A stretch of 64,000 nt of DNA from Spirilliplanes yamanashiensis (GCF_016863475.1 NZ_BOOY01000009.1:1-64000); one strand, 5' to 3'. Counted from the stretch's first letter, positions 35,749 to 64,000 are shown. Program-made: numbers and translations. Notes: generated from the sequence alone by a model not told the origin.

Positions 35749-36741
35749 ATGACAACGGTCGCCGTCACCGGTGCCGAGGGCTTCATCGGCTCGCACCTGA
35801 CCGAGCGCCTGGTCGCCGCGGGCCACCGCGTCCGCGCGATGGTGCAGTACAACTCGTTCGACACCCGCGGCTGGCTGGACACCCTCGGCGCCGACGTGCT
35901 CGCCGACGTCGACGTGGTGGCCGGCGACGTCGAGGACCCGGCCACCGTCGCGCAGCTCGTCGAGGGCGCCGAGGTCGTCTACCACCTGGCCGCGCTCATC
36001 GCGATCCCGCACTCCTACCGGGCGCCGCGCTCGTACGTGAACACCAACGTCATCGGCACCCTCAACGTGCTGGAGGTGGTGCGCGCGGGCGGGGCCGGGC
36101 GGCTCGTGCACACCTCCACGTCGGAGACGTACGGCACCGCGCGCACCGTGCCGATCCGCGAGGACCACCCGCTGCAGGCGCAGTCGCCGTACGCCGCCAG
36201 CAAGGTCGCCGCCGACAAGCTGGTCGAGAGCTACCACCTCAGCTTCGGGGTGCCCGCGGTGACGCTGCGCCCGTTCAACACGTTCGGCCCCCGGCAGTCG
36301 GCGCGGGCCGTCATCCCGACCGTGGTCAGCCAGCTCGCGGCCGGCGCGGCCGAGATCCGGCTCGGCGCCCTCGACCCGACCCGCGACTTCACGTTCGTGC
36401 AGGACACCGCCGCCGCGTTCCACGCCGTCGGCACCGCGCCCGCCGACGTGGTGGTCGGCGAGACGTTCAACGCGGGCACCGGCGACGAGATCTCCATCGG
36501 CGCCCTGGCCGCCACCATCGGCGAGCTGATGGGCCGGCCGGTGCCGGTGCGCCCGCAGGACGACCGGCTGCGCCCGGCGAACTCCGAGGTCATGCGGCTG
36601 GTCTGCGACAGCCGCAAGCTGCGCGCCGCCACCGGCTGGGCGCCGCTGTTCGACCTGGCCGACGGCCTCAAGCACACCATCGACTGGTTCCTCGACCCGG
36701 CCAACCTGGCCCGCTACCGCACCGACGGGTACGTCCTCTAA
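35749..36741 (+). CDS. NAD-dependent sugar-nucleotide epimerase/dehydratase (extended SDR)
   Basis: A Rossmann motif VTGAEGFIGSHL and a YAASKVAAD (YxxxK) motif are present. A strong SD GAGAGAGGG lies upstream. Confidence 0.85.
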   Translation: MTTVAVTGAEGFIGSHLTERLVAAGHRVRAMVQYNSFDTRGWLDTLGADVLADVDVVAGDVEDPATVAQLVEGAEVVYHLAALIAIPHSYRAPRSYVNTNVIGTLNVLEVVRAGGAGRLVHTSTSETYGTARTVPIREDHPLQAQSPYAASKVAADKLVESYHLSFGVPAVTLRPFNTFGPRQSARAVIPTVVSQLAAGAAEIRLGALDPTRDFTFVQDTAAAFHAVGTAPADVVVGETFNAGTGDEISIGALAATIGELMGRPVPVRPQDDRLRPANSEVMRLVCDSRKLRAATGWAPLFDLADGLKHTIDWFLDPANLARYRTDGYVL

Positions 36742-36756
36742 CCGAAGGGAACTGCC

Positions 36757-37479
36757 ATGCACGCGGTCATCCTCGCCGGCGGCAAGGGGGTGCGGCTGCG
36801 GCCGTACACCACGTCCCTGCCCAAACCGCTGGTCCCGATCGGGGACCGGTACTCCATCCTCGAGATCATCATGCGGCAGCTGGCGGGCTGCGGCTTCCGC
36901 ACCGCCACCCTCGCCATCGGCCACCTCGGGCACCTCATCCGCGCGTACGTGGGCGACGGCTCCCAGTGGGGCCTGGAGCGGGTCGACTACCAGTCGGAGG
37001 ACTCGCCGCTCGGCACGATCGGGCCGCTGCTGGCCATGCGGGACAGGCTGCCGGAGACGTTCCTCGTGATGAACGGCGACGTGCTCACCGACCTCGACTA
37101 CGGCGACCTGCTCAAGCGGCACGTCGGCTCGGGCGCGGCGCTGACCGTGGCGACCTACCCGCGCCAGGTGAAGATCGACTTCGGGGTCCTCACCAGCAGC
37201 GGCGGGCGCATCGTCGACTTCGTCGAGAAGCCCACCATCGACTACCACGTCAGCATGGGCGTCTACGGGATGTCCGCGTCCGCCCTCGGTCACTACACGC
37301 CCGGCCTGCCGCTCGGCTTCGACGAGCTGGTCCTCGACCTGCTCGCCACCGGCTCCGGCCCGGACGAGTACCGCTTCGACGGCCGCTGGCTCGACATCGG
37401 CCGCCCCGACGACTACGACCGGGCGAACGCCGAGTTCGAGCTGCTCGGCCCCCTGCTGCTGCGGCAGCCGGCGCCGTGA
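36757..37479 (+). CDS. Sugar-phosphate nucleotidyltransferase (NDP-sugar pyrophosphorylase)
   Basis: ILAGGKGVRLRPYT..PKPLVPI is the canonical nucleotidyltransferase signature. Confidence 0.85.
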   Translation: MHAVILAGGKGVRLRPYTTSLPKPLVPIGDRYSILEIIMRQLAGCGFRTATLAIGHLGHLIRAYVGDGSQWGLERVDYQSEDSPLGTIGPLLAMRDRLPETFLVMNGDVLTDLDYGDLLKRHVGSGAALTVATYPRQVKIDFGVLTSSGGRIVDFVEKPTIDYHVSMGVYGMSASALGHYTPGLPLGFDELVLDLLATGSGPDEYRFDGRWLDIGRPDDYDRANAEFELLGPLLLRQPAP

Positions 37480-38345
37480 GGATCGTGCTGTTCGGCGGCG
37501 CCGGCTTCCTCGGCCGGCACGTCGCCGCGGCGCTGACCGGCCACGACGTGGTCGCGCCGGCGCGGTCCGCCGTCGACCTGACGGCCGGGCCGGAGGCGAT
37601 CGCGGGGCTGCTGCGCGGCGCGGACGCGATCGTCAACTGCGCCGGTGTCACGACGGGCCCGGCGGCGGGGCTGGCCGCCGGGAACGTCGTGGCCGTGGCG
37701 CACCTGCTCACCGCGTGGGAACGCGCCGAGCCGGGCGCCCGGCTCGTCCACCTGGGCTCGGCCGCCGAGTACGGCGCGGCCGCGCCGGGCCGCCCGGTGG
37801 CCGAGACCGACGAGCCGGAACCCGTCTCCGCGTACGGGCACAGCAAGCTCGCCGGCACCGCCCTGGTGGCGGCGGCGCACCGGCGCGGCCTGCCCGCGAC
37901 CGTGCTGCGGGTGTTCAACCCGCTCGGCCCGGGCACCCCGGCGGCGCTGCTGCCCGGGCGGCTCGTGGCCGGCCTGCGGGCCGCCGCGGACGGCGGCCCG
38001 CCCGCGACGACGGGCCCGCTGGACGGCCACCGCGACTTCGTGGACGCCCGCGACGTCGCGGCGGCCGTGCGCACCGCCGCGACCGCCCGCGCCCCGCTGC
38101 CCGCCCTGCTCAACGTGGGCAGCGGCCGCGCCACCGCCCTGCGCGACCTGGCCGGGCTGGCGGCGGCGCTGGCCGAGCAGCCCCCGCCCGCCGAGCTGGG
38201 CGGCGGGTCGGCCCGGTCGGCGGCCGTGACGTGGCAGCAGGCCGACCTGGCCCGGGTCACGGCGGCGCTGGGCTGGCGCCCCCGCGTGCCGCTGGCGCAG
38301 TCGCTGCGCGACATGGGCCTCGGCGTCCGGGCCGCGGTGCCGTGA
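37476..38345 (+). CDS. NAD(P)-dependent epimerase/reductase (SDR, RmlD-like size)
   Basis: VLFGGAGFLGRHV and SAYGHSKLAG (YxxxK) are present. The gene is 289 aa and overlaps the upstream stop by 4 nt. Confidence 0.7.
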   Translation: MRIVLFGGAGFLGRHVAAALTGHDVVAPARSAVDLTAGPEAIAGLLRGADAIVNCAGVTTGPAAGLAAGNVVAVAHLLTAWERAEPGARLVHLGSAAEYGAAAPGRPVAETDEPEPVSAYGHSKLAGTALVAAAHRRGLPATVLRVFNPLGPGTPAALLPGRLVAGLRAAADGGPPATTGPLDGHRDFVDARDVAAAVRTAATARAPLPALLNVGSGRATALRDLAGLAAALAEQPPPAELGGGSARSAAVTWQQADLARVTAALGWRPRVPLAQSLRDMGLGVRAAVP

Positions 38346-38998
38346 CCGGCGGCGTGACCGGCGGTGTGGTGGTGCCCGCCTACTTCCACCCGGCCGTGGC
38401 CGCCGGGGCGTGGCGGGCGCTGGCCGCGGCGGGCGACGCCGTGCGCGCGGTCGTGTTCAACGTGGACAGCGGGCCCGGCGCCGCCCCCGAGCGGGAACTG
38501 CTCGCCGTGGCGGCCCGGCTGCGGGTGCCCGTGCTCGGCTACGTCGACGCCGGCTACGGCGCCCGGCCCGCCGCCGACGTCGTCGCGGACCTCGCCCGGC
38601 ACCGCGCCTGGTACCCGGTCACCGGCGTCTTCCTCGACCGGGTGCCCGCCGGCCCCGCCCACCTGTCGCACTGCGCCGCGCTCGCCGCCGCCGCCCGCCG
38701 GCACGGCCTGCCCCAGGTCGTCTTCAACCACGGCGTCCACCCGCACCACGGCTACGCGGCCCTCGCCGACGCCCTCGTCACCTTCGAGGGCCCGGCCACC
38801 GCGCACCGCGACGTCGCCGCCCCCCGCTGGGTCCGCGACCACCCGGCCGCGATGTTCTGGCACCTCGTCCACGACTGCCCGCCGGACGAGGCCGCCGCCG
38901 TGCGCACCCGCGCCGCGGCCCACCACGCGGGCATGGTCTACGCCACCGACCGGCGGGGGGTGAACCCGTGGGACGGGCTGCCCTCGTGGCCGCTGTGA
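38342..38998 (+). CDS. Spherulin-4 family protein (GH135 / Sph3-like putative glycoside hydrolase)
   Basis: VVVPAYFHPAVAAGAW...VVFNVDSGPG...LGYVDAGYGARP...GVFLDR match the family-defining motifs of spherulation-specific family 4. Confidence 0.6.
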   Translation: MTGGVTGGVVVPAYFHPAVAAGAWRALAAAGDAVRAVVFNVDSGPGAAPERELLAVAARLRVPVLGYVDAGYGARPAADVVADLARHRAWYPVTGVFLDRVPAGPAHLSHCAALAAAARRHGLPQVVFNHGVHPHHGYAALADALVTFEGPATAHRDVAAPRWVRDHPAAMFWHLVHDCPPDEAAAVRTRAAAHHAGMVYATDRRGVNPWDGLPSWPL

Positions 38999-39753
38999 CC
39001 CTCGCCCTCGGCGGCTGCCAGCCCCCGCCCGCGCCCCCGCCGCCACCCGCGGGCCGCTGGGCTCCGGCCCCCGGCACCACCTGGCAGTGGCAGCTCACCG
39101 GCGCCGTCGACGTCACCGTCGACGCCGCCGTGTTCGACGTCGACGGCTTCACCACGCCCGCCGCCACCGTCCGCGAGCTGCACGCCCGCGGCCGCAAGGT
39201 CATCTGCTACATCTCCGTCGGCTCCGCCGAGGACTTCCGCCCCGACGCCCACCGCTGGCCCCCCGCCGTGCTCGGCAGACCCCTGCCCGGCTGGCCCGGC
39301 GAACGCTGGCTCGACATCCGCGACCCCGAACGGCTCGCCCCGGTCCTGCGCCCCCGCCTCGACATGTGCCGCGACAAGGGCTTCGACGGCGTCGAGCCGG
39401 ACATCATGGACGCCTACCGCCACGACACCGGCTTCCCTCTCACCGCCGCCCACCAGCTCGCCTTCAACCGCTGGATCGCCCGCGAGGCCCACGCCCGCGG
39501 CCTGGCCGCCGGCCTGAAGAACGACCTCGACCAGGTGCCCGCCCTGGTCGCCGACTTCGACTTCGCGGTCAACGAGGAGTGCGCCGCCTACGCCGAGTGC
39601 GCCGCCCTGACCCCGTTCGTGGCCGCCGGCAAGGCCGTCTTCCACGCCGAGTACGACCTCGACCCGGCCGCCTACTGCCCGGCGACGACCCGGCTGGGGC
39701 TCAGCTCGATCCGCAAGGACCGTGACCTGGGCCCCCGGCTGCGGCGCTGCTGA
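38968..39753 (+). CDS. GH114 family endo-alpha-1,4-polygalactosaminidase-like lipoprotein (PelA-hydrolase / Ega3-like)
   Basis: A lipobox-like LALGGC precedes RKVICYISVGSAEDFRPD and FDGVEPDIMD (GH114 catalytic region pattern). Confidence 0.75.
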   Translation: MGRAALVAAVTLALGGCQPPPAPPPPPAGRWAPAPGTTWQWQLTGAVDVTVDAAVFDVDGFTTPAATVRELHARGRKVICYISVGSAEDFRPDAHRWPPAVLGRPLPGWPGERWLDIRDPERLAPVLRPRLDMCRDKGFDGVEPDIMDAYRHDTGFPLTAAHQLAFNRWIAREAHARGLAAGLKNDLDQVPALVADFDFAVNEECAAYAECAALTPFVAAGKAVFHAEYDLDPAAYCPATTRLGLSSIRKDRDLGPRLRRC

Positions 39754-43944: not shown

Positions 43945-43995
43945 CGTTTCGGAGGGGTGGGCGGCCCGTCCTATCAGGACGATAGGGTGGCGGCC

Positions 43996-44499
43996 ATGAT
44001 CGAAGCGTCATCGGGGCATCGCCGTGAGTATTCGGCAACGAGGGCGCTGCACCGCCGCCCGCCGGAGCGCCCGAACCAGGCGGCCATGGCCCAGGTGCAG
44101 CGCACCGCGGCCGCGGTGGCCGACGAGCCCGCCGCCCTGGCCGAGCGGTTCTACCACCACCTGTTCCAGCTGGCCCCGGGGGTGCGCGACATGTTCCCGG
44201 CGGACATGACGGCGCAGAACGACCGGCTGGCCGGCGCACTGTTCGACGCGGTGCGGGCCCTGGTCGACGACCCGGAGCGCCGCGCCCCGCGCATGGAGGC
44301 GCACCTGCACCGGCTGGGCGCCGACCACGCCCACCGGTACGCGGTGCGGCCGGAGCACTACCCGTTCGTGGGGCACGCGCTGGTGCGCGCGGTGCAGGAC
44401 GTGTCCGGCGACTGGTCGGCGTCGACCAGCTCGGCCTGGCTGTGGGTGTACGAGTGGATGAGCAGCCACATGATGAGCGCCGCGCACGACGTCCGATAA
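43996..44499 (+). CDS. Single-domain globin (Hmp N-terminal-like)
   Basis: FYHHLFQLAPGVRDMF and the later HA..HxxxxV helices resemble bacterial globins. The start is uncertain. Confidence 0.5.
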   Translation: MIEASSGHRREYSATRALHRRPPERPNQAAMAQVQRTAAAVADEPAALAERFYHHLFQLAPGVRDMFPADMTAQNDRLAGALFDAVRALVDDPERRAPRMEAHLHRLGADHAHRYAVRPEHYPFVGHALVRAVQDVSGDWSASTSSAWLWVYEWMSSHMMSAAHDVR

Positions 44500-44713
44500 G
44501 GACGTTTATGAACATAAGGGACGAATGCCGCGCAAGATCGTTCCGCGGCGCGGGTACGCCGACCGGGCGCGCGGGTCCTCTGTGCACCCGTCCACACCCG
44601 ACGGATGATCATGCGCGCGAGTCACGATCGACCGCCCTCGAATGAGTGAGCGGTTTCGTGGCGAACTGGCTACCGAGAGGTAACCTTTAACCCGATCCGG
44701 GGTTGAGGGGGCC

Positions 44714-46309
44714 GTGGTGGACGGTTCGGTCGCCGAGTTCGAGCAGCTCGCCGCCGGGTTGACCGCGCTCGAGGACAGGTTCGTGTGGGACGTCGCGGCG
44801 ACGCTCGACGCGGCCGAGCGCCTGGAGCGCGAGGCGGCGCTGCTCGGCGACGAGGAGCTGGCGGTCCGCGCCCGCCTCGTGCAGGCCAACATGTGGATGC
44901 GCCGGGGCGACATCGCGGCCGCCGCCCGCCGCATGCGCGAGATCGACCAGTGGGCGGACGAGAACGACCGGTCGATGATCCGAGCGCGCGCCCAGCTGCT
45001 GCTCACGAGCGTGCACCACCTGCTCGGCGACCCCGCCACCAGCCTGGAGCACGCCATCCGCGCCGTCGAGTACCTGGACGCCGGCGCGACGCCGCACGCC
45101 ACCGTGTGGCACCGGGTGAAACTGGCCGACGCGCTGGCCGAGGCGGGCTCGATCGCGGCGGCGCGCACCCGCTACGAGCAGGCCGAACAGCTCGCCGCCG
45201 CGCACGGCGCGCACCGGCTGCACATGGCGGTGCTCAACAACCGCGCCTACTCCGAGTACGCCGCCGGCGAGCACGAGCAGGCCGCCGCGGTGGTGGACCG
45301 GCTGCGGGCGAAGGCGGCGGCGCACGGGTTCCCGCTCGACCCGGCCGACCTCGACACGATCGGCAACATCCAGATCGGCAACCACCGGTACGCGGACGCC
45401 GAGCGCACGCTGCACGCCTGCATCGCCCTGCACGCCGAGGGCCGGCACGGCACCGCCGACCAGCTCGCCGAGTACCTGCTGACGCTCTGCCGGGCGCAGC
45501 GCGGGCTGGGCGCGACCGAGCGGGCGCAGCACACGCTGGACGCCAGCCGGCGGATCTGCGAGGAGCGCGGGCTCGGCGAGGTGCTCGTCCGGGTGCACCA
45601 GGAGCAGGCCGAGCTGCACGCCGCCCGGGGCGAGTTCGCGCAGGCGTACGCAGTGCACAAGGCGTTCTTCGCCGCCTACGACCGGTTGCACTCGTCGCGG
45701 CGGGAGGCGCAGGCGCGCACCCGGCAGGCGATGTTCGAGACGGCCGAGGCGCGCGAGGAGGCCGAGCGCTTCCGCGAGCAGGCCCGCCGCGACCCGCTGA
45801 CCGGGCTGCGCAACCGCCGGTTCGTCGACGAGCAGCTGCCCGCGCTCATCGCCGACCCGGGCGCGCCGGTGACCATCGCGATCCTCGACCTCGACCACTT
45901 CAAGCGGGTCAACGACGAGCTGTCGCACGACGTCGGCGACCAGGTGCTGCGCGTGGTGGCGGGCCTGCTGGACGCGGAGGTGGCCGAGCTGGCGCCGGCC
46001 GGGTTCGCGGCGCGCCTGGGCGGCGAGGAGTTCCTGCTGGCGCTGCCCGGACTGACCGCCGCGACCGCGGTGGCCTGCCTCGACCTGCTGCGGGTGCGGA
46101 TCCGGTCGTACCCGTGGGCGGAGGTGACCGGGCGCCTGCCGGTGACGGTGAGCATCGGCGCGGCCAGCACCGACGACGAGGTGGAACCGACCCAGCGCGG
46201 CCTGCTGTCCACAGCGGACAGCAACCTGTACGCGGCCAAGCGCGGCGGCCGCGACCGCGTGGTGACGGGCGCCGCGCACGGGCTGCGGCGGCACCGGAGC
46301 GGGGCGTAG
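44714..46309 (+). CDS. Diguanylate cyclase (GGDEF) with N-terminal TPR-like helical sensor region
   Basis: RDPLTGLRNRRF...ILDLDHFKRVND...RLGGEEFLLAL carries the GGEEF active-site motif. Confidence 0.85.
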   Translation: MVDGSVAEFEQLAAGLTALEDRFVWDVAATLDAAERLEREAALLGDEELAVRARLVQANMWMRRGDIAAAARRMREIDQWADENDRSMIRARAQLLLTSVHHLLGDPATSLEHAIRAVEYLDAGATPHATVWHRVKLADALAEAGSIAAARTRYEQAEQLAAAHGAHRLHMAVLNNRAYSEYAAGEHEQAAAVVDRLRAKAAAHGFPLDPADLDTIGNIQIGNHRYADAERTLHACIALHAEGRHGTADQLAEYLLTLCRAQRGLGATERAQHTLDASRRICEERGLGEVLVRVHQEQAELHAARGEFAQAYAVHKAFFAAYDRLHSSRREAQARTRQAMFETAEAREEAERFREQARRDPLTGLRNRRFVDEQLPALIADPGAPVTIAILDLDHFKRVNDELSHDVGDQVLRVVAGLLDAEVAELAPAGFAARLGGEEFLLALPGLTAATAVACLDLLRVRIRSYPWAEVTGRLPVTVSIGAASTDDEVEPTQRGLLSTADSNLYAAKRGGRDRVVTGAAHGLRRHRSGA

Positions 46310-49156: not shown

Positions 49157-49327
49157 CGAGAACCGGCTCCTAGACGGAGGGGGACGGGAGTGTTCACAGC
49201 ATCGTGACGCCCGTCGATGCCCGTCAATGAGTTTCTAAGAATTTTTTAACATCTGGGATGCCGGGGAGCGTAATTGTTACCGCCGCTGCGGCAATTCGCC
49301 CGCTTCCCGGCGCGCGGGCCCGGCCGG

Positions 49328-51646
49328 ATGATCGACTGGACGGTGATGCTGCCGCTCCACGTCACCCGCTCCGGCGAGCCCGAGCTCCGCTTCGCGGACA
49401 CCGGCCGCCTCGTCGTCGGCCGCGACCCCGGCTGCGCGGTCGTCGTCGACGACCCGCTCGTCTCCCGCGAGCACTGCCTGCTGGAACGCCGCCCCGACGG
49501 CTGGCTGGTCACCGACACCAGCCGCAACGGCACGTTCGCCGGGGACGCCCCCGTGGGCACCCGGCTGCTCGGCCCCGGCGAGACCCTGGTGCTGCGCCTC
49601 GGCGGCCCCGGCTCCGGCCCGGCCGTGACCCTGCGCGTCGACCCGGCCCCCAACCGGCACGCCCTGCCCACGGTCTCCGGCCCGAACCCGCTCGCCGCCG
49701 CCGGCCCGGACGACGTCGTCGCCCTGCACCCCCTCGACCGCGGTCCCGTCCCGATCGGCCGGGTGCCCGACAACCGCGTCGTCGTGGACGACCTGCTGGT
49801 CTCCCGCTACCACGCCGTCGTCACGCTCACCGGGCCCGGCCGCGCCGAGGTCACCGACCTGGGCGCCCGCAACGGCACCTTCGTCAACGGCCACCCGGTC
49901 GACCGCTCCACGCTGCGCCCCGGCGACCGGCTCACCGTCGGCCGCCGCACCTTCTCCTACGACGGCCGCACCGGCCTGCGCGAACATGGCCGCGCCCGGC
50001 ACGCCGCGCTCACCGCCGACCACCTGACCGTCCGCTACGGCGACACCCCCGTGCTGGCCGACGTGTCGTTCTCCGTCGACCCCGGCACGTTCCTGGCCAT
50101 CATCGGCCCCAGCGGCGCCGGCAAGTCCACCCTGCTGCGCGCGCTCACCGGCGCCCGCGCCGCCGACCAGGGCCGGGTGCTGGTCGACGGCATCGACTTC
50201 TACCCGGCCTACGACGAGGTCCGGCACCGCATCGGGCTGGTGCCCCAGGACGACGTCCTGCACGACCAGCTCAAGGTCGGCCAGGCCCTGCGGTACGCGG
50301 CCGCGCTGCGCCTGCCCGACGACGTGCCGGCCGCCGCCCGCGACGAACGCGTCACCTCCGTGCTCGCCCAGCTCGACCTGACCGCCCGCCGCGACCTGCA
50401 GATCGCCCGGCTGTCCGGCGGCCAGCGCAAACGCGCCTCGGTGGCGATGGAGCTGCTCACCGAGCCGTCCCTGCTGTACCTCGACGAACCCACCTCCGGC
50501 CTGGACCCGCTGCTCGACCGCGAGGTCATGCGCGGCCTGCGCCACCTCGCCGACCGCGGCCGCACCGTCGTCGTGGTCACCCACAGCACCCTGCAACTGC
50601 ACATGTGCGACAAGGTCCTCGTGCTGGCCCGCGGCGGCCGCGTCGCCTACTTCGGCCCCCCGGACCGGCTGCTCGCCCACTTCGGCGCCGCCGACTACGC
50701 CGACGCGTTCACCGCCCTCAGCGACGAGGCCACCTCGTGGGCCACCCGGTACGCGACCGGCACCCAGCCCGCGGTGACCCCGCCCCCGCGTACCACCGCA
50801 CCCCTGCCGCCGAGGCAGAGCCGGCGGCGGCAGTTCGGCCTGCTCATGCACCGCCAGGCCGCCCTCGCCCTGGCCGACCGCCGCCAGCTCGGCCTGCTCC
50901 TCGGCCTGCCGTTCTTCCTGGCCGCCGTCGTCCAGACCGCCCCGTCGTCGGCGGGCCTCGCACTGCGGCCCGGCGCCCCGCCCCAGCTCGGCGCCGCCAC
51001 CCTGCTCGTCATCCTGGTCATCGGCGCCGCCTTCATGGGCATGGCCACCAGCGTCCGCGAACTCGTCGCCGAACGCCCCGTCTACCTGCGCGAATGGTCC
51101 GTCGGCCTGCGACCCGGCGTGTACCTGCTGTCGAAGATCGCCACCGCGGCCGCACTGTGCGTCGTGCAGTCGGCGCTGCTGGCGGCCCTCGGCCTGCTCG
51201 GCCGCGACCTGCCCCGGCACGGCCTCATCCTGCGCTCCGCGTGGCTGGAACTGGCCCTCGTGCTGACCCTCACCGCCCTGACGGCGGCGATGGCGGGGCT
51301 GCTGGCGAGCGCGCTCGTCTCCCGCACCGAACACACCATGCCGATCCTGGTCGTGTCCGTCATGGCGCAGCTCGTGCTCAGCGGCGGCCTGTTCAGCATC
51401 GGCGACCGCCCGTGGCTCCAGGCGATCGCGGTGGTGAGCCCGACCCGGTGGGGGTTCGCCGCGGCGGCGTCGTCGGTGGACCTGCGCGCCTTCCGGCTGC
51501 TGCTGCCCGCGGACGCGCTGTGGGTGCACACGCGCGGCGCCTTCGCGGTGGCCGTCGCGGTGCTGTCCGGGCTGGCGGTGCTGTTCGGGGTGGCGGCGCT
51601 GGTCGCGCTGCGGCGCCGGGAGGAACGGCCCCGCCGCGTGCGTTAG
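49328..51646 (+). CDS. FHA-FHA-ABC transporter (two forkhead-associated domains fused to ABC ATPase and ABC-2 permease; Rv1747-like)
   Basis: Two FHA cores (GR.P.....L.D..VSR.H; NGTFVNG) are present. Walker A GPSGAGKST, signature LSGGQRKR and Walker B LLYLDEPTSGLD follow. Six TM helices end the protein. Confidence 0.8.
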   Translation: MIDWTVMLPLHVTRSGEPELRFADTGRLVVGRDPGCAVVVDDPLVSREHCLLERRPDGWLVTDTSRNGTFAGDAPVGTRLLGPGETLVLRLGGPGSGPAVTLRVDPAPNRHALPTVSGPNPLAAAGPDDVVALHPLDRGPVPIGRVPDNRVVVDDLLVSRYHAVVTLTGPGRAEVTDLGARNGTFVNGHPVDRSTLRPGDRLTVGRRTFSYDGRTGLREHGRARHAALTADHLTVRYGDTPVLADVSFSVDPGTFLAIIGPSGAGKSTLLRALTGARAADQGRVLVDGIDFYPAYDEVRHRIGLVPQDDVLHDQLKVGQALRYAAALRLPDDVPAAARDERVTSVLAQLDLTARRDLQIARLSGGQRKRASVAMELLTEPSLLYLDEPTSGLDPLLDREVMRGLRHLADRGRTVVVVTHSTLQLHMCDKVLVLARGGRVAYFGPPDRLLAHFGAADYADAFTALSDEATSWATRYATGTQPAVTPPPRTTAPLPPRQSRRRQFGLLMHRQAALALADRRQLGLLLGLPFFLAAVVQTAPSSAGLALRPGAPPQLGAATLLVILVIGAAFMGMATSVRELVAERPVYLREWSVGLRPGVYLLSKIATAAALCVVQSALLAALGLLGRDLPRHGLILRSAWLELALVLTLTALTAAMAGLLASALVSRTEHTMPILVVSVMAQLVLSGGLFSIGDRPWLQAIAVVSPTRWGFAAAASSVDLRAFRLLLPADALWVHTRGAFAVAVAVLSGLAVLFGVAALVALRRREERPRRVR

Positions 51647-56298: not shown

Positions 56299-57333
56299 AT
56301 GGCGCGGCTACGATCGGCGATCGCCGCGCTGCTCGCCGCCGCCCTCCTCACCGCCTGCGAGAGCCCCGGGCAGGACGCCCCGGTCGGCGCCTCGGACCTG
56401 CTGAGCAGACCGCGGACGGTCGGCGCGTGGCCCGGTGCGAACGGCCTGTCCGGTGTGAACGGTGACCCCGTGCTCGACCGGGCCCACACCGAGCGCTTCT
56501 GCGCCGCCCGCGGTCGCCCGTGCCGCGTCGCGCACACCTACACCGACCGGGCGAGCTGGGAGTCGATGACGCGGGGGTCGGACTGGGTGTTCGAGTTCTA
56601 CGCCGGGTTCGACGGGGCGCTGGTGATCTCGCAGGGGCTGACGCCCGAGGACGGCACCCAGGACGATCTCGCCGCCTGCGCGCGGGGGGCGCACGACCAG
56701 CTGTGGCGGGACTTCGGCGCGGTGATGACGCGGCACGGGCGCGGGGACTCGGTCGTGCGGCTCGGGTGGGAGTTCAACGGGGACTTCATGCCGTGGCACG
56801 CCGCCGATCCGGGGACGTGGATCACCTGTTACCGGCGGGCGGCGGACGGGATCCGCGCGACGAACCCGGACGTGCTGCTGGACTGGACGATCAACGCGCA
56901 CGGGACGCCGCCGGGGATCTGCGGCGGGGTCAGCACCACCTGTTACCCGGGCGACGAGTACGTCGACATCGTCGGCATCGACAACTACGACCACTGGCCG
57001 GCGTCGGGCAGTGCGGCGGAGTTCGCGGCGACGGCGGCGGCGCCGGAGGGGCTGGACTGGTTGTACGCGTTCGCGCGCGAGCGCGGGAAGCTGTTCTCCG
57101 TCGGCGAGTGGGGGGTGGTGCCGACGGGGGACGCGGGGCGGGAGAACCCGGAGTTCGTGCGGTGGATGCACGCGTGGTTCGCGGCGCACGCGGACGGGCT
57201 GGCGTACGAGGCGTACTTCTCGGACTGTTCGGCCGGTGGGGTGCAGTCGAGCCTGTTCCGGACGGGGCCGGAGTGCCGGGCGAACCCGGGGTCGGCGGCG
57301 GTCTACAGAGAACTGTTCGGCGGGGCGGTGTGA
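56299..57333 (+). CDS. Lipoprotein glycoside hydrolase, GH26-like (beta-mannanase-like)
   Basis: A lipobox LLTAC, RLGWEFNGDFMPW (GH26-like catalytic acid region) and VGEWGV are present. A strong SD GAGAGGTGGAG lies upstream. Confidence 0.55.
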   Translation: MARLRSAIAALLAAALLTACESPGQDAPVGASDLLSRPRTVGAWPGANGLSGVNGDPVLDRAHTERFCAARGRPCRVAHTYTDRASWESMTRGSDWVFEFYAGFDGALVISQGLTPEDGTQDDLAACARGAHDQLWRDFGAVMTRHGRGDSVVRLGWEFNGDFMPWHAADPGTWITCYRRAADGIRATNPDVLLDWTINAHGTPPGICGGVSTTCYPGDEYVDIVGIDNYDHWPASGSAAEFAATAAAPEGLDWLYAFARERGKLFSVGEWGVVPTGDAGRENPEFVRWMHAWFAAHADGLAYEAYFSDCSAGGVQSSLFRTGPECRANPGSAAVYRELFGGAV

Positions 57334-57379: not shown

Positions 57380-59848
57380 ATGTCTTACGAGCCGCTCACC
57401 GTGCCGGGCGACGCCCGATCGGTGATCGAGCGGTTCCGCGCCGTGGCGCGGGCGCTGCCGGACACGCCGGCCCTAGTGTCGCCGGAGGGGTCGTACACCT
57501 TCGGCCAGGCCGATGCCCTGTCGGAGCGTATCGGCGCGATGTTGCGGCGTGATGACGTCACCGCATCCGTCGCGGTGCTGCTGCCGCAGACCGCCGACGG
57601 GCTGCTGGGCATGCTGGGGGCGCTGAAGTCGGGGCGGCCGGTGGTGCTGCTCGACCCGACGCTGCCCGCCGAGCGGCTGCGCCAGATCGTCGCCCAGGCA
57701 GGGGCCCGCGAGTGCCTCACCGACACCGCGCACGACCTTCCGATCAGGACGATCCTGCTCGCGGACGCGCTGCAGGGCACCGGCCCGGCCGGCGACGGCG
57801 GCACCGGCACCGCGTTCGTCTGCTTCACCTCCGGGTCCACCGGGCGGCCCAAGGGCGTCGTGCTCACCCACGGCATGCTGCTGAACGAGGCGTACGGCGG
57901 GCGCGAGCGGCTCGACCTGGGGCCCGGCGACACCGTCGCGCTGGTGCTGCCGGCCGCGTTCATGGCCGGGCTCACCGTCGTGGTGTTCGCGCTGCTCAAC
58001 GGGGCGACGCTGTACGCGTACGACCCGCGGGTGCGTGGCATCCGGGACCTGGCGCCCGCGCTGCGCGACGCCGGCGTCACCACGCTGCACTGCACGCCGT
58101 CGCTGCTGCGCTCGCTGCTGGCCGTTCTGCCGCCGGGGCACGTGCTCGACGGGTTGCGGCTGGTCACCACGTGCGGCGAGGCGATTCACGGGCGCGACGT
58201 CGCCGCGCTGCGCGCGCACCTGCCCGCGGACTGCACGTACACCAGCTGGTCCGGCTCGTCGGAGATCGGGCACCTGGCGTTCTTCCCGATCCGGCCCGGG
58301 GACCCCGTACCCGAGGGGATCGTGCCCGTGGGTTTCCCCGCGCCCGGCAAGGACGTGACGCTGGTCGGCGAGGACGGCCGGCCCGTGCCGCCGGGCGGGA
58401 CCGGCGAGGTCGTGGTGACGTCCGACCACCTGTCGGGCGGGTACTGGAACGCGCCCGAGGAGACCGCGGCGCGCTTCGACGGGCCGACGGTCTACCGCAT
58501 GGGCGACCTGGGGCGCTTCGACGAGCGCGGCGTGCTGCACCTGCTCGGCCGGCGCGACTCCGCCGTCAAGATCCGCGGCTACCTCGTGGAGCCCGCCGAG
58601 GTGGAGGCCGCGCTGCTGGCCGTGCCCGCCATCGCCGAGGCCGTCGTGGTGGCCGTGCGGGACGGCGCCGAGCCGGTGCGGCTGGCCGCGTACGTGGCGC
58701 CGCACCCCACCGCCGGCACACCCGCGCCCGCCACGCTGCGCCGGTTCCTGCGCGAGCGGCTGCCGTCCTGGATGGTGCCCGCCGCGATCGTCGTGCTGCC
58801 GTCGCTGCCGCGCAACGAGCGCGGCAAGGTCGACCGGGTCGCGCTGCCGCCGCCGCCCGCCGCCGACCCGGGGGTGCCGCCGCGGTCGCACTGGGAGGTC
58901 ATCGTCGCCGACCTGTGGGCGCACGTGCTCGACCTGGAGAGCGTCGGCGTGCACGACGATTTCATGGCGCTCGGCGGCGACTCGCTCGCCGCGGAGGAGC
59001 TGCTGGCGGCCGTCGAGGAGCGGCTCGGGCTGCGGCTCACCTCCACCGACCTGATCGAGGCGCCGACCGTGGCGGAGTTCGCCACACTCGTCGCGGCCCG
59101 GCCCACCACGCGGCACCCCACGCTGGTCACGCTGCGCGCCGACGGCGACGAGGCGCCGCTGTTCTGCTTCGCCGGGGCCGGCGGGCTCGGGTTCAGCTTC
59201 CTGCCGCTGGCCCGGCGGCTGCCCGCCGGGCGGCCGGTGCACGCGTTGCAGGCGTACGGGCTGGAGAACCGCGGCCTGCCCGACTGGAGCGTGCGGCGGG
59301 CCGCCCGCCGGCACCTCGCCACCATCCGCGAGCTGCAGCCGCACGGGCCGTACCACCTGGCCGGGCACTCCCTCGGCGGGCTCATCGCCCTGGAGGTGGC
59401 GCGGCAGCTCACCGCCGCCGGCGAGCAGGTCGCGCTCGTCGCCGTGCTCGACACGTACCTGCCCAAGGCCGCCAAGGACTCGACGTTCGCCGGCCCGGCC
59501 GCCCAGCCGCAGGCCGGGCTGCTGGCGCGGCTGCGCGGCGACTCGCGCGAGCTGTGGTCGTACCGGCTGCGGTTGCCGCTCGCGGGCATCGTGCCGTTCG
59601 ACGGCATCACCCAGTACGGGGTGTTCTTCGAGCAGGGCCACCTGCTCACCCGGCTGCACGGCCGGGTGCGGCCCTGGCCCGGCCGTGCCCTGCTGTTCCT
59701 CGCCGAGGACCACCCCGGCGACCCCGCGGCCTGGCACGACGTGCTCACCGGCGAGCTGGACGTGCACCGGGTCGCCTGCGACCACCCGTCGGTGCTGCGC
59801 GAACCGCACGTCGAGGCGGTCGCCGCCGCCATCGCGAAGGCGCTGTGA
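57380..59848 (+). CDS. Stand-alone NRPS-like enzyme: adenylation - PCP - thioesterase
   Basis: A-domain motifs FTSGSTGRPKGV (A3), YRMGDLG (A7), GRRDSAVKIRGYLVEPAEVE (A8) and NERGKVDR (A10) are present. The PCP motif is LGGDSLAA and the TE motif is GHSLGG. Confidence 0.85.
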   Translation: MSYEPLTVPGDARSVIERFRAVARALPDTPALVSPEGSYTFGQADALSERIGAMLRRDDVTASVAVLLPQTADGLLGMLGALKSGRPVVLLDPTLPAERLRQIVAQAGARECLTDTAHDLPIRTILLADALQGTGPAGDGGTGTAFVCFTSGSTGRPKGVVLTHGMLLNEAYGGRERLDLGPGDTVALVLPAAFMAGLTVVVFALLNGATLYAYDPRVRGIRDLAPALRDAGVTTLHCTPSLLRSLLAVLPPGHVLDGLRLVTTCGEAIHGRDVAALRAHLPADCTYTSWSGSSEIGHLAFFPIRPGDPVPEGIVPVGFPAPGKDVTLVGEDGRPVPPGGTGEVVVTSDHLSGGYWNAPEETAARFDGPTVYRMGDLGRFDERGVLHLLGRRDSAVKIRGYLVEPAEVEAALLAVPAIAEAVVVAVRDGAEPVRLAAYVAPHPTAGTPAPATLRRFLRERLPSWMVPAAIVVLPSLPRNERGKVDRVALPPPPAADPGVPPRSHWEVIVADLWAHVLDLESVGVHDDFMALGGDSLAAEELLAAVEERLGLRLTSTDLIEAPTVAEFATLVAARPTTRHPTLVTLRADGDEAPLFCFAGAGGLGFSFLPLARRLPAGRPVHALQAYGLENRGLPDWSVRRAARRHLATIRELQPHGPYHLAGHSLGGLIALEVARQLTAAGEQVALVAVLDTYLPKAAKDSTFAGPAAQPQAGLLARLRGDSRELWSYRLRLPLAGIVPFDGITQYGVFFEQGHLLTRLHGRVRPWPGRALLFLAEDHPGDPAAWHDVLTGELDVHRVACDHPSVLREPHVEAVAAAIAKAL

Positions 59849-60483
59849 TGCGGCGGCGCGGCACCTCCCGCGGCGGCCCCGCCGTCGTCCGGCACCGCGA
59901 CGCCCGGCCGCTGGGCCGCGTCGAGCAGCTCGTGCTGCGCGGCGACGGCCTCACCACCACTTCCCTGGAGATCCTCACCGGCCGGGCCATCACCGTGCGG
60001 GTGCGCGCGCACTGGCGCATCCCGCTGCACGCCGACGTCATGCACCCCGGCGACGAGCTCTACACCGGACTCGACGCGCCCGACCTGTCCTGGCTGGCCG
60101 CGGTCGGCGCGGGGCGGCTCGCCGCCGCCGACGGCGACGAGCTGCTGGTCCGCGACGTGCTGCTGACCGGCGACGACGGCGTCGACTACGGCGCCGCCAG
60201 CGTCGTCGCCGTCCTCGACCGGCTGCCCGCCGCCGTCGCCCGCGACCTCGCCACCACGGACGAGCCGATCGGGCGCATGCTGGCCCGCGCCCGGGTCCCG
60301 GTCCGCCGCGAGCTGCGGCACTGGGGGGTACGCCGGCTCGGCGTGCGCGGCACCACGCTCGGCGCCGGCGAGGACGCCGCCGTGCCCGCCCGCACGTACC
60401 TCATGCGCCTGGTCGACGACGGCCGCCCGCTGTGCCTGATCACCGAGTGGTTCGCGCCGCGCGTCTTCGAGGAGCGGGCGTGA
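59848..60483 (+). CDS. Chorismate pyruvate-lyase (UbiC-like)
   Basis: TTSLEILTGRAITVRV, RDVLLTGDDGVDYGAASVV and TYLMRLVDDGRPLCLITEWFAP align block-for-block with the UbiC fold. Confidence 0.6.
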   Translation: MRRRGTSRGGPAVVRHRDARPLGRVEQLVLRGDGLTTTSLEILTGRAITVRVRAHWRIPLHADVMHPGDELYTGLDAPDLSWLAAVGAGRLAAADGDELLVRDVLLTGDDGVDYGAASVVAVLDRLPAAVARDLATTDEPIGRMLARARVPVRRELRHWGVRRLGVRGTTLGAGEDAAVPARTYLMRLVDDGRPLCLITEWFAPRVFEERA

Positions 60484-61637
60484 GGACGCAGGTCTGCATC
60501 ATCGGCGCCGGCCCGGCCGGGCTGACCCTCGCGCACCTGCTGCACCGGCAGGGCATCGAGTGCGTGGTGCTGGAGCGGCGCAGCCGCGCCCACGTCGAGT
60601 CGCGGGTCCGCGCGGGCGTGCTGGAGCAGCCCACCGTCGACCTGTTCACCGAGATCGGCGTCGCCGGCCGCCTGCACCGCGAGGGCATGACCCACCACGG
60701 CGTCAACCTGCGCTTCGGCGGCGAGACCCACCGCATCGACTTCGACGCGCTCACCGGCGGCAAGGCCATCACCGTGTACGGCCAGCAGGAGGTCGTCAAG
60801 GACCTGCTGGCCGCGCTGGCCCCGCCCGTGCTGTTCGAGGTGTCGGACGTGCGCGTCGCCGACCGCCGGGTCACGGTCGTGCACGACGGCGCCGAGACGG
60901 TCGTCGACTGCGACGTCGTCGCCGGGTGCGACGGCTTCCACGGCGTCAGCCGCGCCTCGATTCCGGCCGGCGCGCTCACCGCCTACGAGCGCACCCACCC
61001 GTCCGCGTGGCTGGGCATCCTGGCCCGCACCAAGCCCGCCGCCGAGGAGCTGATCTACGCCCGGCACGACGACGGCTTCGCCCTGCACAGCATGCGCGGG
61101 CCCGCCCTCACCCGGCAGTACCTGCAGGTCCCCGCCGGCACCGACCTCGCCGACTGGCCCGACGAGCGGATCTGGGCCGCGCTGCGCCGCCGCCTCGACG
61201 ACCCCGCCCTGGAGGACGGCGAGATCGTCGACCGGGGCGTCACCGACCTGCGCAGCCACGTCGTCGAGCCGATGCGGCACGGCAACCTGTTCCTCGTCGG
61301 CGACGCCGCCCACATCGTCCCCGCCACCGGCGCCAAGGGCCTCAACCTGGCCGTCGCCGACGCGGTCGCGCTGTCGTACGCGCTCGGCGCCTACTACGCC
61401 GGGGTGCCCGCGGAGCTGGACCGCTACTCCGCGCGCTGCCTCGACCGGGTCTGGCGGGTGCAGCACTTCTCCTGGTGGATGACGTCGCTGCTGCACACCC
61501 CCGACCGCGCCGACCCGTTCGCCGCGCGGCTCCAGCACGCCGAGCTGGCGCAGGTCGTCTCCTCGCCGGCCGCGGCGCGCGTCCTGGCCGAGAACTACGT
61601 CGGGCTGCCGCACCCCGTGGGCTGGTCGTGGCGCTGA
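60480..61637 (+). CDS. pobA: 4-hydroxybenzoate 3-monooxygenase
   Basis: VRTQVCIIGAGPAGLTLAHLLHRQGIECVVLERRSRAHVESRVRAGVLEQ is near-identical in pattern to the PobA N-terminus. GDAAHIVPATGAKGLNLAVADA is also present. Confidence 0.85.
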   Translation: MRTQVCIIGAGPAGLTLAHLLHRQGIECVVLERRSRAHVESRVRAGVLEQPTVDLFTEIGVAGRLHREGMTHHGVNLRFGGETHRIDFDALTGGKAITVYGQQEVVKDLLAALAPPVLFEVSDVRVADRRVTVVHDGAETVVDCDVVAGCDGFHGVSRASIPAGALTAYERTHPSAWLGILARTKPAAEELIYARHDDGFALHSMRGPALTRQYLQVPAGTDLADWPDERIWAALRRRLDDPALEDGEIVDRGVTDLRSHVVEPMRHGNLFLVGDAAHIVPATGAKGLNLAVADAVALSYALGAYYAGVPAELDRYSARCLDRVWRVQHFSWWMTSLLHTPDRADPFAARLQHAELAQVVSSPAAARVLAENYVGLPHPVGWSWR

Positions 61638-62569
61638 GGATCGCGGTCGTCATGCCCACGTACCACCGCGCCGACCTGCTGCGCCGGGTCGTGCCCGCGT
61701 ACCTGGCGCAGGACCCGGACGAGCTGGTCGTGGTGCTCGACGGCCCCCAGCCCGGCCCGCGCGCCTACCTCGGCACGGTCGCCGACCCGCGGCTGCGGGT
61801 CCTGGAACTGGCCGACAACGTCGGTCCCGCCCGCGCCCGTGAGCAGGGCGCCCGCCTCGCCACCGCCGAGATCGTCTTCATCACCGACGACGACATCGTG
61901 CCCGGCGACGGCCTCGTCGCCCGGCACCGCGACTTCCACACCGGCCGCACCGGCGCCGTCCTCGCCGGCTACGTGCCCATCGCCGGCCTGCCCCGCCAGC
62001 GCCCCGGCCAGGTCTCCAGCCGCATCTTCGCCGCCGACTACGAACGCGCCATGCGCCGCTGGGACCGCGACCCCGGCACCGTGCTCGACGGCCTGTGGGG
62101 CGGCAACGTCAGCATGGAACGCAGCCTGTACCTGGCCGCCGAGGACCTGCGCGCCCCCGACCGGCTGCGCTACTTCGAGGACATGGACCTCGGCCTGCGC
62201 CTGCGCTCCCTCGGCGCCACCGGCCACTTCGACCGCGCCGCCACCGGCCTGCACCTGCACGAGAAGTCCAACGCGTCGTTCCTGCGCGAGGCCCGCGCCC
62301 GCGGCGCCGCGGTGCGCGCCATGGAGGCCCGCTGGCACTTCAGCCCGCCCACCGTCCACGCCGACGACGAACCCCCGGTGATCGCCCGCCTGCGCCGCCT
62401 CGTCGCGGCCGGCCTGCGCCTCCGCGTCGTCGTGCCGCTCGCGGTGCTGCTGCTGCGCGGGCTGCTCGCCGCCGCGGGGCGACTGCGGCTGTGGGGCGCC
62501 GAGGACCTGACCGCCCGCCTGCTGCGCGGCATCCTGGAGACCACCGCGTACGTGCGCGCGGGCCGCTGA
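61628..62569 (+). CDS. GT2 family glycosyltransferase
   Basis: IAVVMPTYHRADLL, a DxD-like FITDDDIV and an (Q/R)xxRW-like ERAMRRWD are present. The GTG start overlaps the pobA end. Confidence 0.7.
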   Translation: MALRIAVVMPTYHRADLLRRVVPAYLAQDPDELVVVLDGPQPGPRAYLGTVADPRLRVLELADNVGPARAREQGARLATAEIVFITDDDIVPGDGLVARHRDFHTGRTGAVLAGYVPIAGLPRQRPGQVSSRIFAADYERAMRRWDRDPGTVLDGLWGGNVSMERSLYLAAEDLRAPDRLRYFEDMDLGLRLRSLGATGHFDRAATGLHLHEKSNASFLREARARGAAVRAMEARWHFSPPTVHADDEPPVIARLRRLVAAGLRLRVVVPLAVLLLRGLLAAAGRLRLWGAEDLTARLLRGILETTAYVRAGR

Positions 62570-62572
62570 CCC

Positions 62573-63955
62573 TCAGCGGCCCGCGCCCCGGAACACCTCG
62601 GCGACCGTGCGCAGGACGACCTTGACGTCCAGCCACAGTGACCAGTTCTCGATGTAGTAGTTGTCGAACCGGGCCCGGTCCGAGATCGGGGTGTCCCCGC
62701 GCAACCCGCTGACCTGCGCCAGCCCGGTCAGCCCGACCGGCACCCGGTGCCGCATCGCGTACTCGGGGTGGTCGGCGGAGAACCGCTCCACGAAGAACGG
62801 GCGCTCCGGGCGCGGCCCGACGAACGTCATGTCGCCGCGCAGGATGTTCCACAGCTGGGGCAGCTCGTCCAGCGACGTGCGGCGCAGGAACCGGCCGATC
62901 GGCCCCACCCGCGGGTCGTCGGCCACCGACCACCGGGTCTGCGACTCCGCGTCGTCCGCCGGGCGCATGGACCGGAACTTGATCACGTCGAACGGCCGGC
63001 CGTACTGGCCGATGCGCTGCTGGCGGAAGAAGATGCCGGGGCCGCCCTCGACGCGGACGAGCAGGGCGCACACCAGCAGCACCGGGCTCAGCAGCAGCAG
63101 CGCCAGCACCGCCACCACCACGTCCGTCGTGCGCTTGACCAGCCACTTCCAGCCGCTCAGGGTGGACCGGCGGGCCCGCACCACCGGGATCGCGCCGATG
63201 TGGTCCGGGGCGCTCTGCACCGGGAAGTCCCGCAGCCGCGGCACCACCCACAGGTCGCACCGGGCGCTCTGCGGGCGCCGGACCAGCTCGATCAGGTCGG
63301 CGTCCGGGGTGTCCACGTCCGCCACGATGATCACGTCAGTCTTGGTCAGCCGCACCATCTCGTCCAGGTCGGCCAGGTGACCGATGAGCGGCTGCTGCTC
63401 CGCGTCCGGGTGCGGGGTCGACGCGTCGTCGACGAACCCGGCGAAGCGCAGCCCGTACTGCGGGTACCGGCGCAGCAGCCGGGCCAGCTCCACGGCGACC
63501 GGCCCGCCGCCGATGACGATCGCGTTGTGCTCCACCCACCGCCGCCGCCGCGCCAGCAACACCACGTTGATGGTGACGGCGCGGCCCACGATCACCAGCA
63601 GCGCCGACAGCGCGATGTTGCGCATGAACGGCCCCACGTCGGCGAGCGACGAGTGCCGCTGCGCCGCGATGATGCCCACCACGGCCGCCGACGCGAACAG
63701 CCGCATGCACAGCCCCGGCAGCTCGTCGAGAATGCTCATGTGCCGCCGGCCCTGGTAGAGCCCGCCCGCGGCGAAGATGACGACGGTCAGCACCGCCGCG
63801 AAGATCATGCCCTTCCAGTTCTGCGTGCTGACCAGCAACGGCGCCAGCATGGCCACCAGGTCGACCGGCATGGTCAGCATCCACGCCCGCAGCGGCCGCC
63901 ACCGGTTGCCCGTCGTGGACTCCAGATACGGCAGCACGACCGTGCTGGCCACCAC
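62573..63955 (-). CDS. Exopolysaccharide polyprenyl-phosphate glycosyl-1-phosphate transferase (WbaP/sugar transferase family)
   Basis: N-terminal TM helices and a Rossmann-like middle are followed by a C-terminal catalytic domain DELPQLWNILRGDMTFVGPRPERP. The N-terminus may extend past the ORF start. Confidence 0.8.
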   Translation of the reverse strand: MVASTVVLPYLESTTGNRWRPLRAWMLTMPVDLVAMLAPLLVSTQNWKGMIFAAVLTVVIFAAGGLYQGRRHMSILDELPGLCMRLFASAAVVGIIAAQRHSSLADVGPFMRNIALSALLVIVGRAVTINVVLLARRRRWVEHNAIVIGGGPVAVELARLLRRYPQYGLRFAGFVDDASTPHPDAEQQPLIGHLADLDEMVRLTKTDVIIVADVDTPDADLIELVRRPQSARCDLWVVPRLRDFPVQSAPDHIGAIPVVRARRSTLSGWKWLVKRTTDVVVAVLALLLLSPVLLVCALLVRVEGGPGIFFRQQRIGQYGRPFDVIKFRSMRPADDAESQTRWSVADDPRVGPIGRFLRRTSLDELPQLWNILRGDMTFVGPRPERPFFVERFSADHPEYAMRHRVPVGLTGLAQVSGLRGDTPISDRARFDNYYIENWSLWLDVKVVLRTVAEVFRGAGR

Positions 63956-64000
63956 CTGCCGGCCGTCGGCACTCCGGCGCGGGCCGGGTACGACCGCCGG

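Follow-up and report, generated by a model that had tools for sequence, protein, structure and literature searches.

Near the end of a 64-kb stretch of the genome of Spirilliplanes yamanashiensis (a soil actinomycete of the family Micromonosporaceae; NZ_BOOY01000009.1:1–64000, in the following termed the window; G+C content 74%), four translationally coupled genes on the plus strand (57380–62569) encode a stand-alone enzyme of the nonribosomal peptide synthetase (NRPS) type with adenylation, peptidyl carrier protein and thioesterase domains (A-PCP-TE), a chorismate-lyase-like protein, the 4-hydroxybenzoate 3-monooxygenase PobA and a glycosyltransferase of family GT2. Judging from sequence comparisons, the A-PCP-TE protein probably loads a hydroxybenzoate that is made by the enzymes encoded next to it. 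The full model, in which the operon represents a self-supplying aroylation module with a glycan as acceptor, is put forward more tentatively. It is already known that A-carrier proteins load aryl acids and that hydroxybenzoates can derive from chorismate. For the conserved pairing of a fused A-PCP-TE with its own chorismate lyase inside glycan-assembly loci, however, literature searches yielded no description.

Genes were called by frame analysis of the third-position G+C content (GC3), which sorts genes from the many spurious open reading frames (ORFs) of this GC-rich sequence, in combination with Pfam and NCBIfam scans. The A-PCP-TE gene (57380–59848, 822 amino acids (aa)) contains the Pfam domains AMP-binding, AMP-binding_C, PP-binding and Thioesterase. 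It is followed by the gene of a 211-aa member of the DUF98/Rv2949c-like chorismate pyruvate-lyase family (59848–60483, PF01947), a putative 4-hydroxybenzoate synthase, by pobA (60480–61637, 385 aa, matching NF006091 and p-hydroxybenzoate hydroxylase (PHBH)) and, as the operon's last gene, by that of the GT2 glycosyltransferase (61628–62569, 313 aa, with Pfam and EpsD-like NCBIfam matches). Gene order and identities thus agree with those given by an earlier model-generated annotation of the same DNA, the sequence-only reading. The overlaps of stop and start codons that it had described between neighbouring cassette genes can likewise be read from the sequence: the A-PCP-TE and lyase genes have 1 nt in common (TGATG), the lyase and pobA genes overlap by 4 nt (GTGA), and the GT2 start codon GTG at 61628 gives rise to a 10-nt overlap with the end of pobA. 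An alternative GT2 start, ATG at 61652, would remove the first β-strand of the glycosyltransferase, and the orthologues in Micromonospora and Pilimelia likewise begin within pobA.

Comparison of this locus (L001) with related loci revealed that five genes, encoding a GH26-like protein, A-PCP-TE, lyase, PobA and GT2, are kept in the same order in Micromonospora craniellae (L084) and Pilimelia columellifera (L085), which argues against a chance arrangement. In total, an A-PCP-TE gene lies directly upstream of a lyase-like gene at 15 loci (L001, L084, L085, L089, L090, L091, L095, L097–L102, L106 and L112) from at least six actinobacterial genera and from metagenomes, often with a 4-nt overlap. 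Among the 17 informative loci retrieved with the lyase alone, 11 possess an A-PCP-TE gene directly upstream; these cassettes derive from Glaciihabitans, Nakamurella leprariae (A-PCP only), Mumia flava and eight metagenome contigs. Altogether the cassette is found in Micromonosporaceae, Microbacteriaceae, Nocardioidaceae and Nakamurellaceae. Its conserved core consists of A-PCP-TE and lyase, with PobA and GT2 as lineage-specific additions. Two separate lineages have PobA immediately after the lyase (L001/L084/L085 and L101/L102/L106), and in Nakamurella (L090) a PobA-like gene is situated within the locus, 7 kb downstream. A variation is seen at L093 (6654–8803), where the gene preceding that of the lyase encodes, in place of A-PCP-TE, a PaaK-type ligase with AMP-binding and AMP-binding_C_2 domains, and two GT4 genes adjoin; here an aryl-acid ligase seems to provide activation by another route in the same setting.

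The A domain (approximately residues 19–483) matches PF00501 with 194 bits and also PF13193, as is typical of ANL/NRPS adenylation domains. Motifs A3, A7, A8 and A10 are canonical, with FTSGSTGRPKG, GRRDSAVKIRGYLVEP and PRNERGKVDR all found, and the A10 lysine (K483) is invariant across an alignment of 22 family sequences. Motif A4, however, lacks the aspartate (FMAGLT versus FDxS; FDGS or FDIS in LgrA), and A5 reads SWSGSSE versus NxYGPTE. The sequence-only reading, which had credited the A domain with all core motifs and the TE with GHSLGG, was therefore approximately right on the first point and right on the second. The ten-residue specificity code, obtained from computed alignments with LgrA and known GrsA reference positions, is MATSTCWHLK and lacks Asp235. 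None of the 120 closest relatives possesses this aspartate, the position being occupied by A, M, T, G, S, I, L, V or P, and Lys517 is kept in all of them except one two-member code group with Arg. Since Asp235 is replaced by Met, Ala or Gly, the A domain is predicted not to activate an α-amino acid; a code for a proteinogenic amino acid, the outcome that the earlier annotation had set against its aryl-starter proposal, was not found. The closest structures in the Protein Data Bank (PDB) are NRPS modules for amino acids, LgrA and EntF among them, with EntF as the best full-length match spanning A, PCP and TE. A generic-motif scan of genome contigs (TSGxTGxPKG, KIRGYLVEP) returned ordinary NRPS modules of 24–36% identity and was uninformative with respect to synteny.

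Codes of lyase-linked enzymes fall into two types, an H278 type, AA[IST]H[SL]VW[TV]LK, and an H330 type, [MA]A[TEA]S[TS]C[WY]HLK. All PobA-linked enzymes are of the H330 type. Yet L091 and L112 are of this type without a nearby PobA, so the code alone does not decide between 4-hydroxybenzoate (4-HBA) and protocatechuate. His330 as a marker of PobA, which fits the six PobA-adjacent loci and L090, was dropped on account of L091 and of L112, which has no PobA within 8 kb. The H278-type code as a marker of lyase linkage was ruled out by a Pseudonocardia locus (L113), which has this code and no lyase. Another locus, L088 of Geodermatophilus sp. SYSU D00758 (6593–22526), accommodates four A-PCP-TE paralogues in 16 kb near Wzx, GT2 and GT2-deacetylase genes. 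The codes of the three complete paralogues differ (AAESTCWMLK, AAISTAWELK and AAISPGWGLK), which suggests a diversified set of acyl donors.

The PCP domain (residues 509–571; PF00550, 53 bits) carries the phosphopantetheine attachment site Ser535 in the motif GGDSL, and G532, D534, S535 and L536 are invariant in the family alignment. Situated at the C-terminus is the TE domain (residues 593–820; PF00975, 99.7 bits) with the triad of a type I thioesterase, Ser664 in GHSLGG, Asp691 and His802, which is invariant across the family. Its closest PDB matches are 7crn and 7dxo ('Non-ribosomal peptide synthetase 4'), followed by EntF and, more weakly, by the TE of Pks13. The TE may act by hydrolysis, transfer or oligomerisation, all three modes being compatible with its sequence. 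No membrane segments are predicted in the A-PCP-TE protein; any transfer would thus be cytoplasmic, plausibly onto a lipid-linked repeat unit.

The lyase-like protein matches PF01947 (Rv2949c-like) with 32.8 bits, above the cut-off of 22, over its C-terminal half, and scores far below the cut-off of the NCBIfam model cyano_chori_ly. Its match among PDB sequences is 2nwi. In agreement with this, the top Foldseek match of an AlphaFold model (mean predicted local distance difference test score 85.8) is again the DUF98 protein 2nwi (E = 1e-10, template modelling score 0.78–0.80 on the target), with UTRA domains, which share this superfold, ranking next; Escherichia coli UbiC is not found within the top 50 matches. 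The family is small and tight, with 101 clusters among 5.8 billion proteins, and its invariant positions comprise an LRGDGLTTT motif, R102 and E200. A profile alignment by hhalign places R102 and E200 opposite R76 and E155, residues for catalysis and product binding in E. coli UbiC (80% probability, E = 1.5e-5; E. coli sequence from general knowledge). The protein is accordingly regarded as a putative 4-hydroxybenzoate synthase.

PobA scores 538 bits with NF006091 (cut-off 351) and 476 bits with the stricter equivalog TIGR02360, under the cut-off of 538.7. Its best PDB match, Pseudomonas PHBH (1d7l; 5.5e-119), covers residues 1–378 end to end, and the PHBH residues H72, Y201, S212, R214, R220, Y222 and Y385 are conserved, P293 alone being changed, to Ala.

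The surroundings of the cassette are recurrently those of glycan assembly. Directly upstream of A-PCP-TE, in all three Micromonosporaceae loci (L001, L084 and L085), lies the gene of a GH26-family glycoside hydrolase-like lipoprotein (344 aa; 56299–57333, plus strand), assigned by weak Pfam GH26/GH5 matches, by the lipobox in its N-terminus MARLRSAIAALLAAALLTAC and by synteny; its homologues, common among the Micromonosporaceae, bear the name 'glycoside hydrolase family 26'. In Actinoplanes missouriensis, a Wzx/Wzy exopolysaccharide (EPS) cluster required for sporangium formation includes the GH26 gene wpsE, and for the EPS cluster wps-3 a PheA/TfdB-type FAD monooxygenase and a protein with an intradiol dioxygenase domain have been reported (PMC13390465). 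The content of wps-3 is a further hint of aromatic chemistry within Micromonosporaceae EPS loci. On the other side of the operon, convergent with it, lies the gene of a polyprenyl-phosphate sugar-phosphate transferase (62573–64000, minus strand; Bac_transf and EPS_sugtrans in Pfam, TIGR03025 with 407 bits). That such a gene adjoins the operon had been noted in the earlier annotation; the end coordinate given there, 63955, is an internal GTG, since the gene runs past the end of the window and encodes 484 aa in the genome record JAUSQT010000001.1 (matched at about 754–777 kb). In that record the locus goes on with FG-GAP, GT4, LytR-CpsA-Psr (LCP) and GT2 genes. A homologue of the sugar transferase (53% identity) is divergent from the lyase gene at L105. 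The EpsD-like GT2 of the window has one C-terminal hydrophobic segment; homologous GT2 genes follow the cassette at four loci (L001, L084, L085 and L112), and tblastn gave 36–39% identity between the enzyme of the window and that of L112, which follows the lyase there.

Similar gene content is found at other loci. GT2, GT4 and polytopic membrane proteins are encoded next to the cassettes of L084 and L085, and Wzx flippases, GT2s and GH16s at L087, L088, L112 and L113, the order at L113 being A-PCP-TE, Wzx, GH16, GH16. L099 carries rmlABCD. A set comprising a GT2 of about 407 aa, a Wzx-like protein, a polytopic protein of 624–806 aa and a GH16 recurs at L090, L091, L100 and L112. Taken together, glycan genes surround members of the A-PCP-TE family at L001, L084, L085, L087, L088, L090, L091, L099–L101, L112 and L113. 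Because the recurrent neighbourhood is that of glycan assembly, the cassette looks less like a stand-alone entity than like a module for acylation within a polysaccharide locus. The gene set of the 'mini biosynthetic cluster' described in the sequence-only reading is real, but its setting makes it less stand-alone than this term implies.

On this basis, the following reaction sequence can be proposed. The DUF98/Rv2949c-like enzyme would remove pyruvate from chorismate to yield 4-HBA, as its family, its fold and the conserved Arg and Glu suggest. Conversion of 4-HBA to 3,4-dihydroxybenzoate (protocatechuate) by PobA would follow, a step for which the family match and the conservation of the substrate-binding residues give good support. 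The A domain would then adenylate the benzoate and transfer it as a thioester onto its own PCP. Besides the missing Asp235, it is mainly the conserved coupling of A-PCP-TE and lyase which argues that the lyase product is loaded, namely 4-HBA or, where PobA follows, protocatechuate. The aryl-starter role proposed in the earlier annotation is therefore retained, supported by the absence of Asp235 and the lyase pairing at 15 loci; for its link to siderophores the window offers no backing. In the next step, Ser664 of the TE would take over the aroyl group, which would then pass to an acceptor's hydroxyl or amine and not to water, since hydrolysis would amount to a futile cycle. From the context, the acceptor would most likely be a sugar of a lipid-linked repeat unit or of a cell-envelope glycan, built by the GT2 of the operon, the adjoining sugar-phosphate transferase and the further GT, Wzx and LCP genes, and trimmed extracellularly by the GH26 lipoprotein. 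In relatives without PobA the group transferred would be 4-hydroxybenzoyl. Whether the model extends to a widespread actinobacterial system, in which a carrier thioester bearing 4-hydroxybenzoyl or protocatechuoyl would serve to esterify envelope or EPS sugars, appears rather doubtful.

For the transfer step, functional analogies may be drawn to systems in which a carrier-bound thioester esterifies a sugar or glycopolymer: DltA-DltC in D-alanylation of teichoic acids, the TE of Pks13, and CloN7/CouN7, which transfer a pyrrolyl group from its PCP thioester to noviose. The Pks13 TE esterifies trehalose with its acyl chain, a mycolate. The catalysts Pks13 and CloN7 are α/β-hydrolases, and the TE of Pks13 shows detectable sequence similarity to that of the cassette. 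However, these systems use other acyl groups and machinery, and none of them involves hydroxybenzoate or a fused A-PCP-TE.

Several observations weigh against the glycan aroylation model. The Pfam score of the lyase is modest, and its fold is common to ligand-binding UTRA domains. The pocket code does not cleanly part PobA-linked from PobA-less loci, the prediction based on His330 having failed on L112. Glycan genes are missing from some cassette loci, with an amidase and an ABC transporter at L089 and an amidohydrolase at L092 and L096. Literature searches did not reveal a hydroxybenzoylated bacterial glycan, and we know of none. Finally, genes for 2,3-dihydroxybenzoate (2,3-DHB) next to the cassettes of L084, L085 and L091 favour a metallophore.

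A small catechol metallophore, the likeliest of the alternatives, is less probable than the glycan aroylation model. Protocatechuate, an iron-binding catechol, or in relatives 2,3-DHB delivered in trans from DhbE, would be coupled by the TE to a small amine or alcohol, and the glycan genes would be mere neighbours. At L085 (3595–8877), DhbA-C-E-B and a 3-deoxy-D-arabino-heptulosonate 7-phosphate synthase are encoded in the same operon as the cassette, with the gene of a SIP-type ferric reductase just upstream. The isochorismatase there lacks an aryl carrier protein domain, and DhbE may load the carrier of A-PCP-TE in trans. Dhb genes are divergent from the cassette at L084 (4354–8582), and an isochorismatase, a C-A-PCP-TE protein (C, condensation domain) and a phosphopantetheinyl transferase adjoin it at L091 (1–4791). 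Within the 64-kb window, however, no Dhb or other isochorismate genes, no condensation domain and no siderophore export, transport or uptake genes were found, leaving the 'catechol siderophore-like' product of the sequence-only reading without backing there. Moreover, most cassette loci lack PobA and would thus provide 4-HBA, which is not a chelator, and the family-wide association is with glycan genes.

Two siderophore systems can be compared with the cassette. In petrobactin biosynthesis, AsbC-AsbD-AsbE adenylate protocatechuate, carry it as a thioester and transfer it without a condensation domain, much as proposed here. In contrast to the cassette, however, these are three separate proteins, AsbE is not an α/β-hydrolase TE, the 3,4-dihydroxybenzoate stems from dehydroshikimate (AsbF) instead of chorismate via 4-HBA, and the window lacks NRPS-independent siderophore synthetases. 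The enterobactin enzymes EntE, EntB and EntF resemble the proposal in that EntF matches over its full length and the product contains a catechol. Unlike them, the cassette has no condensation domain and no Asp235, would use 3,4- and not 2,3-dihydroxybenzoate, and is not accompanied by isochorismate or uptake genes in the window. Should the product nevertheless be a small catechol conjugate, it would represent a minimal metallophore route without a condensation domain.

Glycosylation of the hydroxybenzoate itself, with the GT2 acting on the phenolic hydroxyl and the TE releasing an acid or ester, would result in a small molecule or glycolipid comparable to the p-hydroxybenzoic acid derivatives (p-HBADs) and phenolic glycolipids (PGLs) of mycobacteria. 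In Mycobacterium tuberculosis, Rv2949c supplies p-hydroxybenzoate for p-HBADs and PGLs, its gene adjoins that of the aryl-loading FadD22, and the glycosyltransferases of the pathway include the GT2 enzyme Rv2957. As in this system, the cassette encodes a PF01947 lyase beside an adenylating enzyme that has a carrier domain attached, and a GT2 follows the cassette at four loci. But FadD22 is of the fatty acyl-AMP ligase type, has no TE and passes the aryl group to Pks15/1, whereas the cassette has an NRPS-type A domain, a fused TE, no polyketide synthase or lipid-building genes, a second hydroxyl introduced by PobA and a setting of polysaccharide genes. As the GT2 resembles the EPS-type EpsD, most cassette loci lack a GT2, and the surrounding Wzx, sugar-phosphate transferase, LCP and GH genes point to a polymer, an aryl glycoside is unlikely.

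Activation of an unrelated non-amino acid by the A domain, with lyase and PobA serving another purpose such as catabolism or cofactor synthesis, is quite improbable. It is true that many A-PCP-TE relatives lack a nearby lyase and have other pocket codes (L086, L087, L088 and L113), and that the A domain is nearer to amino-acid NRPS domains than to aryl ligases of the EntE/DhbE type. The 1-nt and 4-nt overlaps and the adjacency of the lyase at 15 loci in distant genera are, however, hard to account for otherwise. A catabolic role of pobA was rejected, as the gene overlaps both neighbours and no pca catabolic genes lie near it; the independently expressed catabolic genes that the sequence-only reading had weighed against its own proposal are thus not what the locus presents. 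Actinobacteria use menaquinone, which makes a ubiquinone-related role of the lyase unlikely. Linear or cyclic depsides of 4-HBA or protocatechuate, formed by attack of a phenolic hydroxyl on the acyl-enzyme, would require on paper no more than the two-gene core, as at L089 without nearby glycan genes, and the next solved match of the TE after 7crn/7dxo is the iterative TE of EntF, but we know of no precedent, and the recurrent glycan genes and the co-operonic GT2 would be left unexplained, so that this explanation is highly improbable.

In domain order, stand-alone occurrence and lack of Asp235, the A-PCP-TE protein also resembles the A-T-TE quinone and furanone synthetases TdiA, AtrA, RalA and EchA. 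These use aryl-pyruvate substrates, two units of which are dimerised by the TE. No aminotransferase or other keto-acid supply is present at the A-PCP-TE locus, and the dedicated partner gene encodes a putative chorismate lyase that would make a benzoate, which argues against membership in the TdiA/RalA/EchA type.

If the acceptor is indeed a glycan, polysaccharides would gain a modification of a new kind, and NRPS-like enzymes a further task. Aromatic acylation of a bacterial glycan by an NRPS-like system would then be seen for the first time, comparable to D-alanylation by Dlt and to p-hydroxybenzoylation of plant cell walls. Polysaccharides of Micromonosporaceae would then bear catechols with metal-binding or adhesive properties, and other acyl groups would be added by paralogues whose pocket codes differ, for instance the four at the Geodermatophilus locus. 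Genome-mining tools probably tag such loci merely as 'NRPS-like', thereby masking a coherent family. With two to five genes, the cassette is a small, concrete and testable system.

The stop codons of the GT2 and sugar transferase genes are both covered by a perfect 14-bp GC-rich hairpin with the loop CCC (62556–62586). Its folding energy of −34.6 kcal/mol (z = −3.8) was not reached by any of 200 shuffled sequences, and it likely represents a bidirectional transcript end, as its sequence and predicted fold suggest. Promoter and terminator consensus scans of 52–64 kb gave no matches, this hairpin alone being conspicuous. The DUF2207 and LemA genes upstream were rejected as part of the unit, for they are not present at L084 and L085. 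An FHA-FHA-ABC-ABC2 transporter resembling Rv1747 is encoded 5.7 kb upstream of A-PCP-TE (49274–51646, plus strand), and a 43% identical transporter is found in Frankia AiPs1 (L086, 4300–6978), 3 kb from an A-PCP-TE homologue. Pairs of ABC_tran and ABC2 genes lie near the cassette at L089, L092 and L096.

Further upstream, the window contains an EPS operon of the Pel or galactosaminogalactan type (31039–39753, plus strand). It encodes a DUF3492-GT4 protein (PelF/Gtb3-like), an NAD-epimerase, an NTP-transferase, a Spherulin4 (Sph3-like) and a GH114 (Ega3/PelA-like) protein and two proteins without Pfam matches. Located between the two EPS loci are genes of a globin-domain protein and, after it, a GGDEF diguanylate cyclase (43957–46309, plus strand), which could provide a cyclic di-GMP input. 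On the minus strand, a 3579-aa ORF (12638–23377) has a G+C content of 63–68%, lower than that of its surroundings, and encodes a polymorphic toxin of the RHS-repeat type that contains LamG domains and DUF6531 and, ahead of the C-terminal tip, a pretoxin-HINT domain; small ORFs downstream of it, for instance at 11079–11672, could be immunity genes. Also on the minus strand (366–11079), a trio reminiscent of a defence island comprises a 1239-aa protein combining TIR and WD40, a 1631-aa DUF3686 ATPase that also has DUF7902 and AAA domains, and a 674-aa protein of the SPFH/Band7 type.

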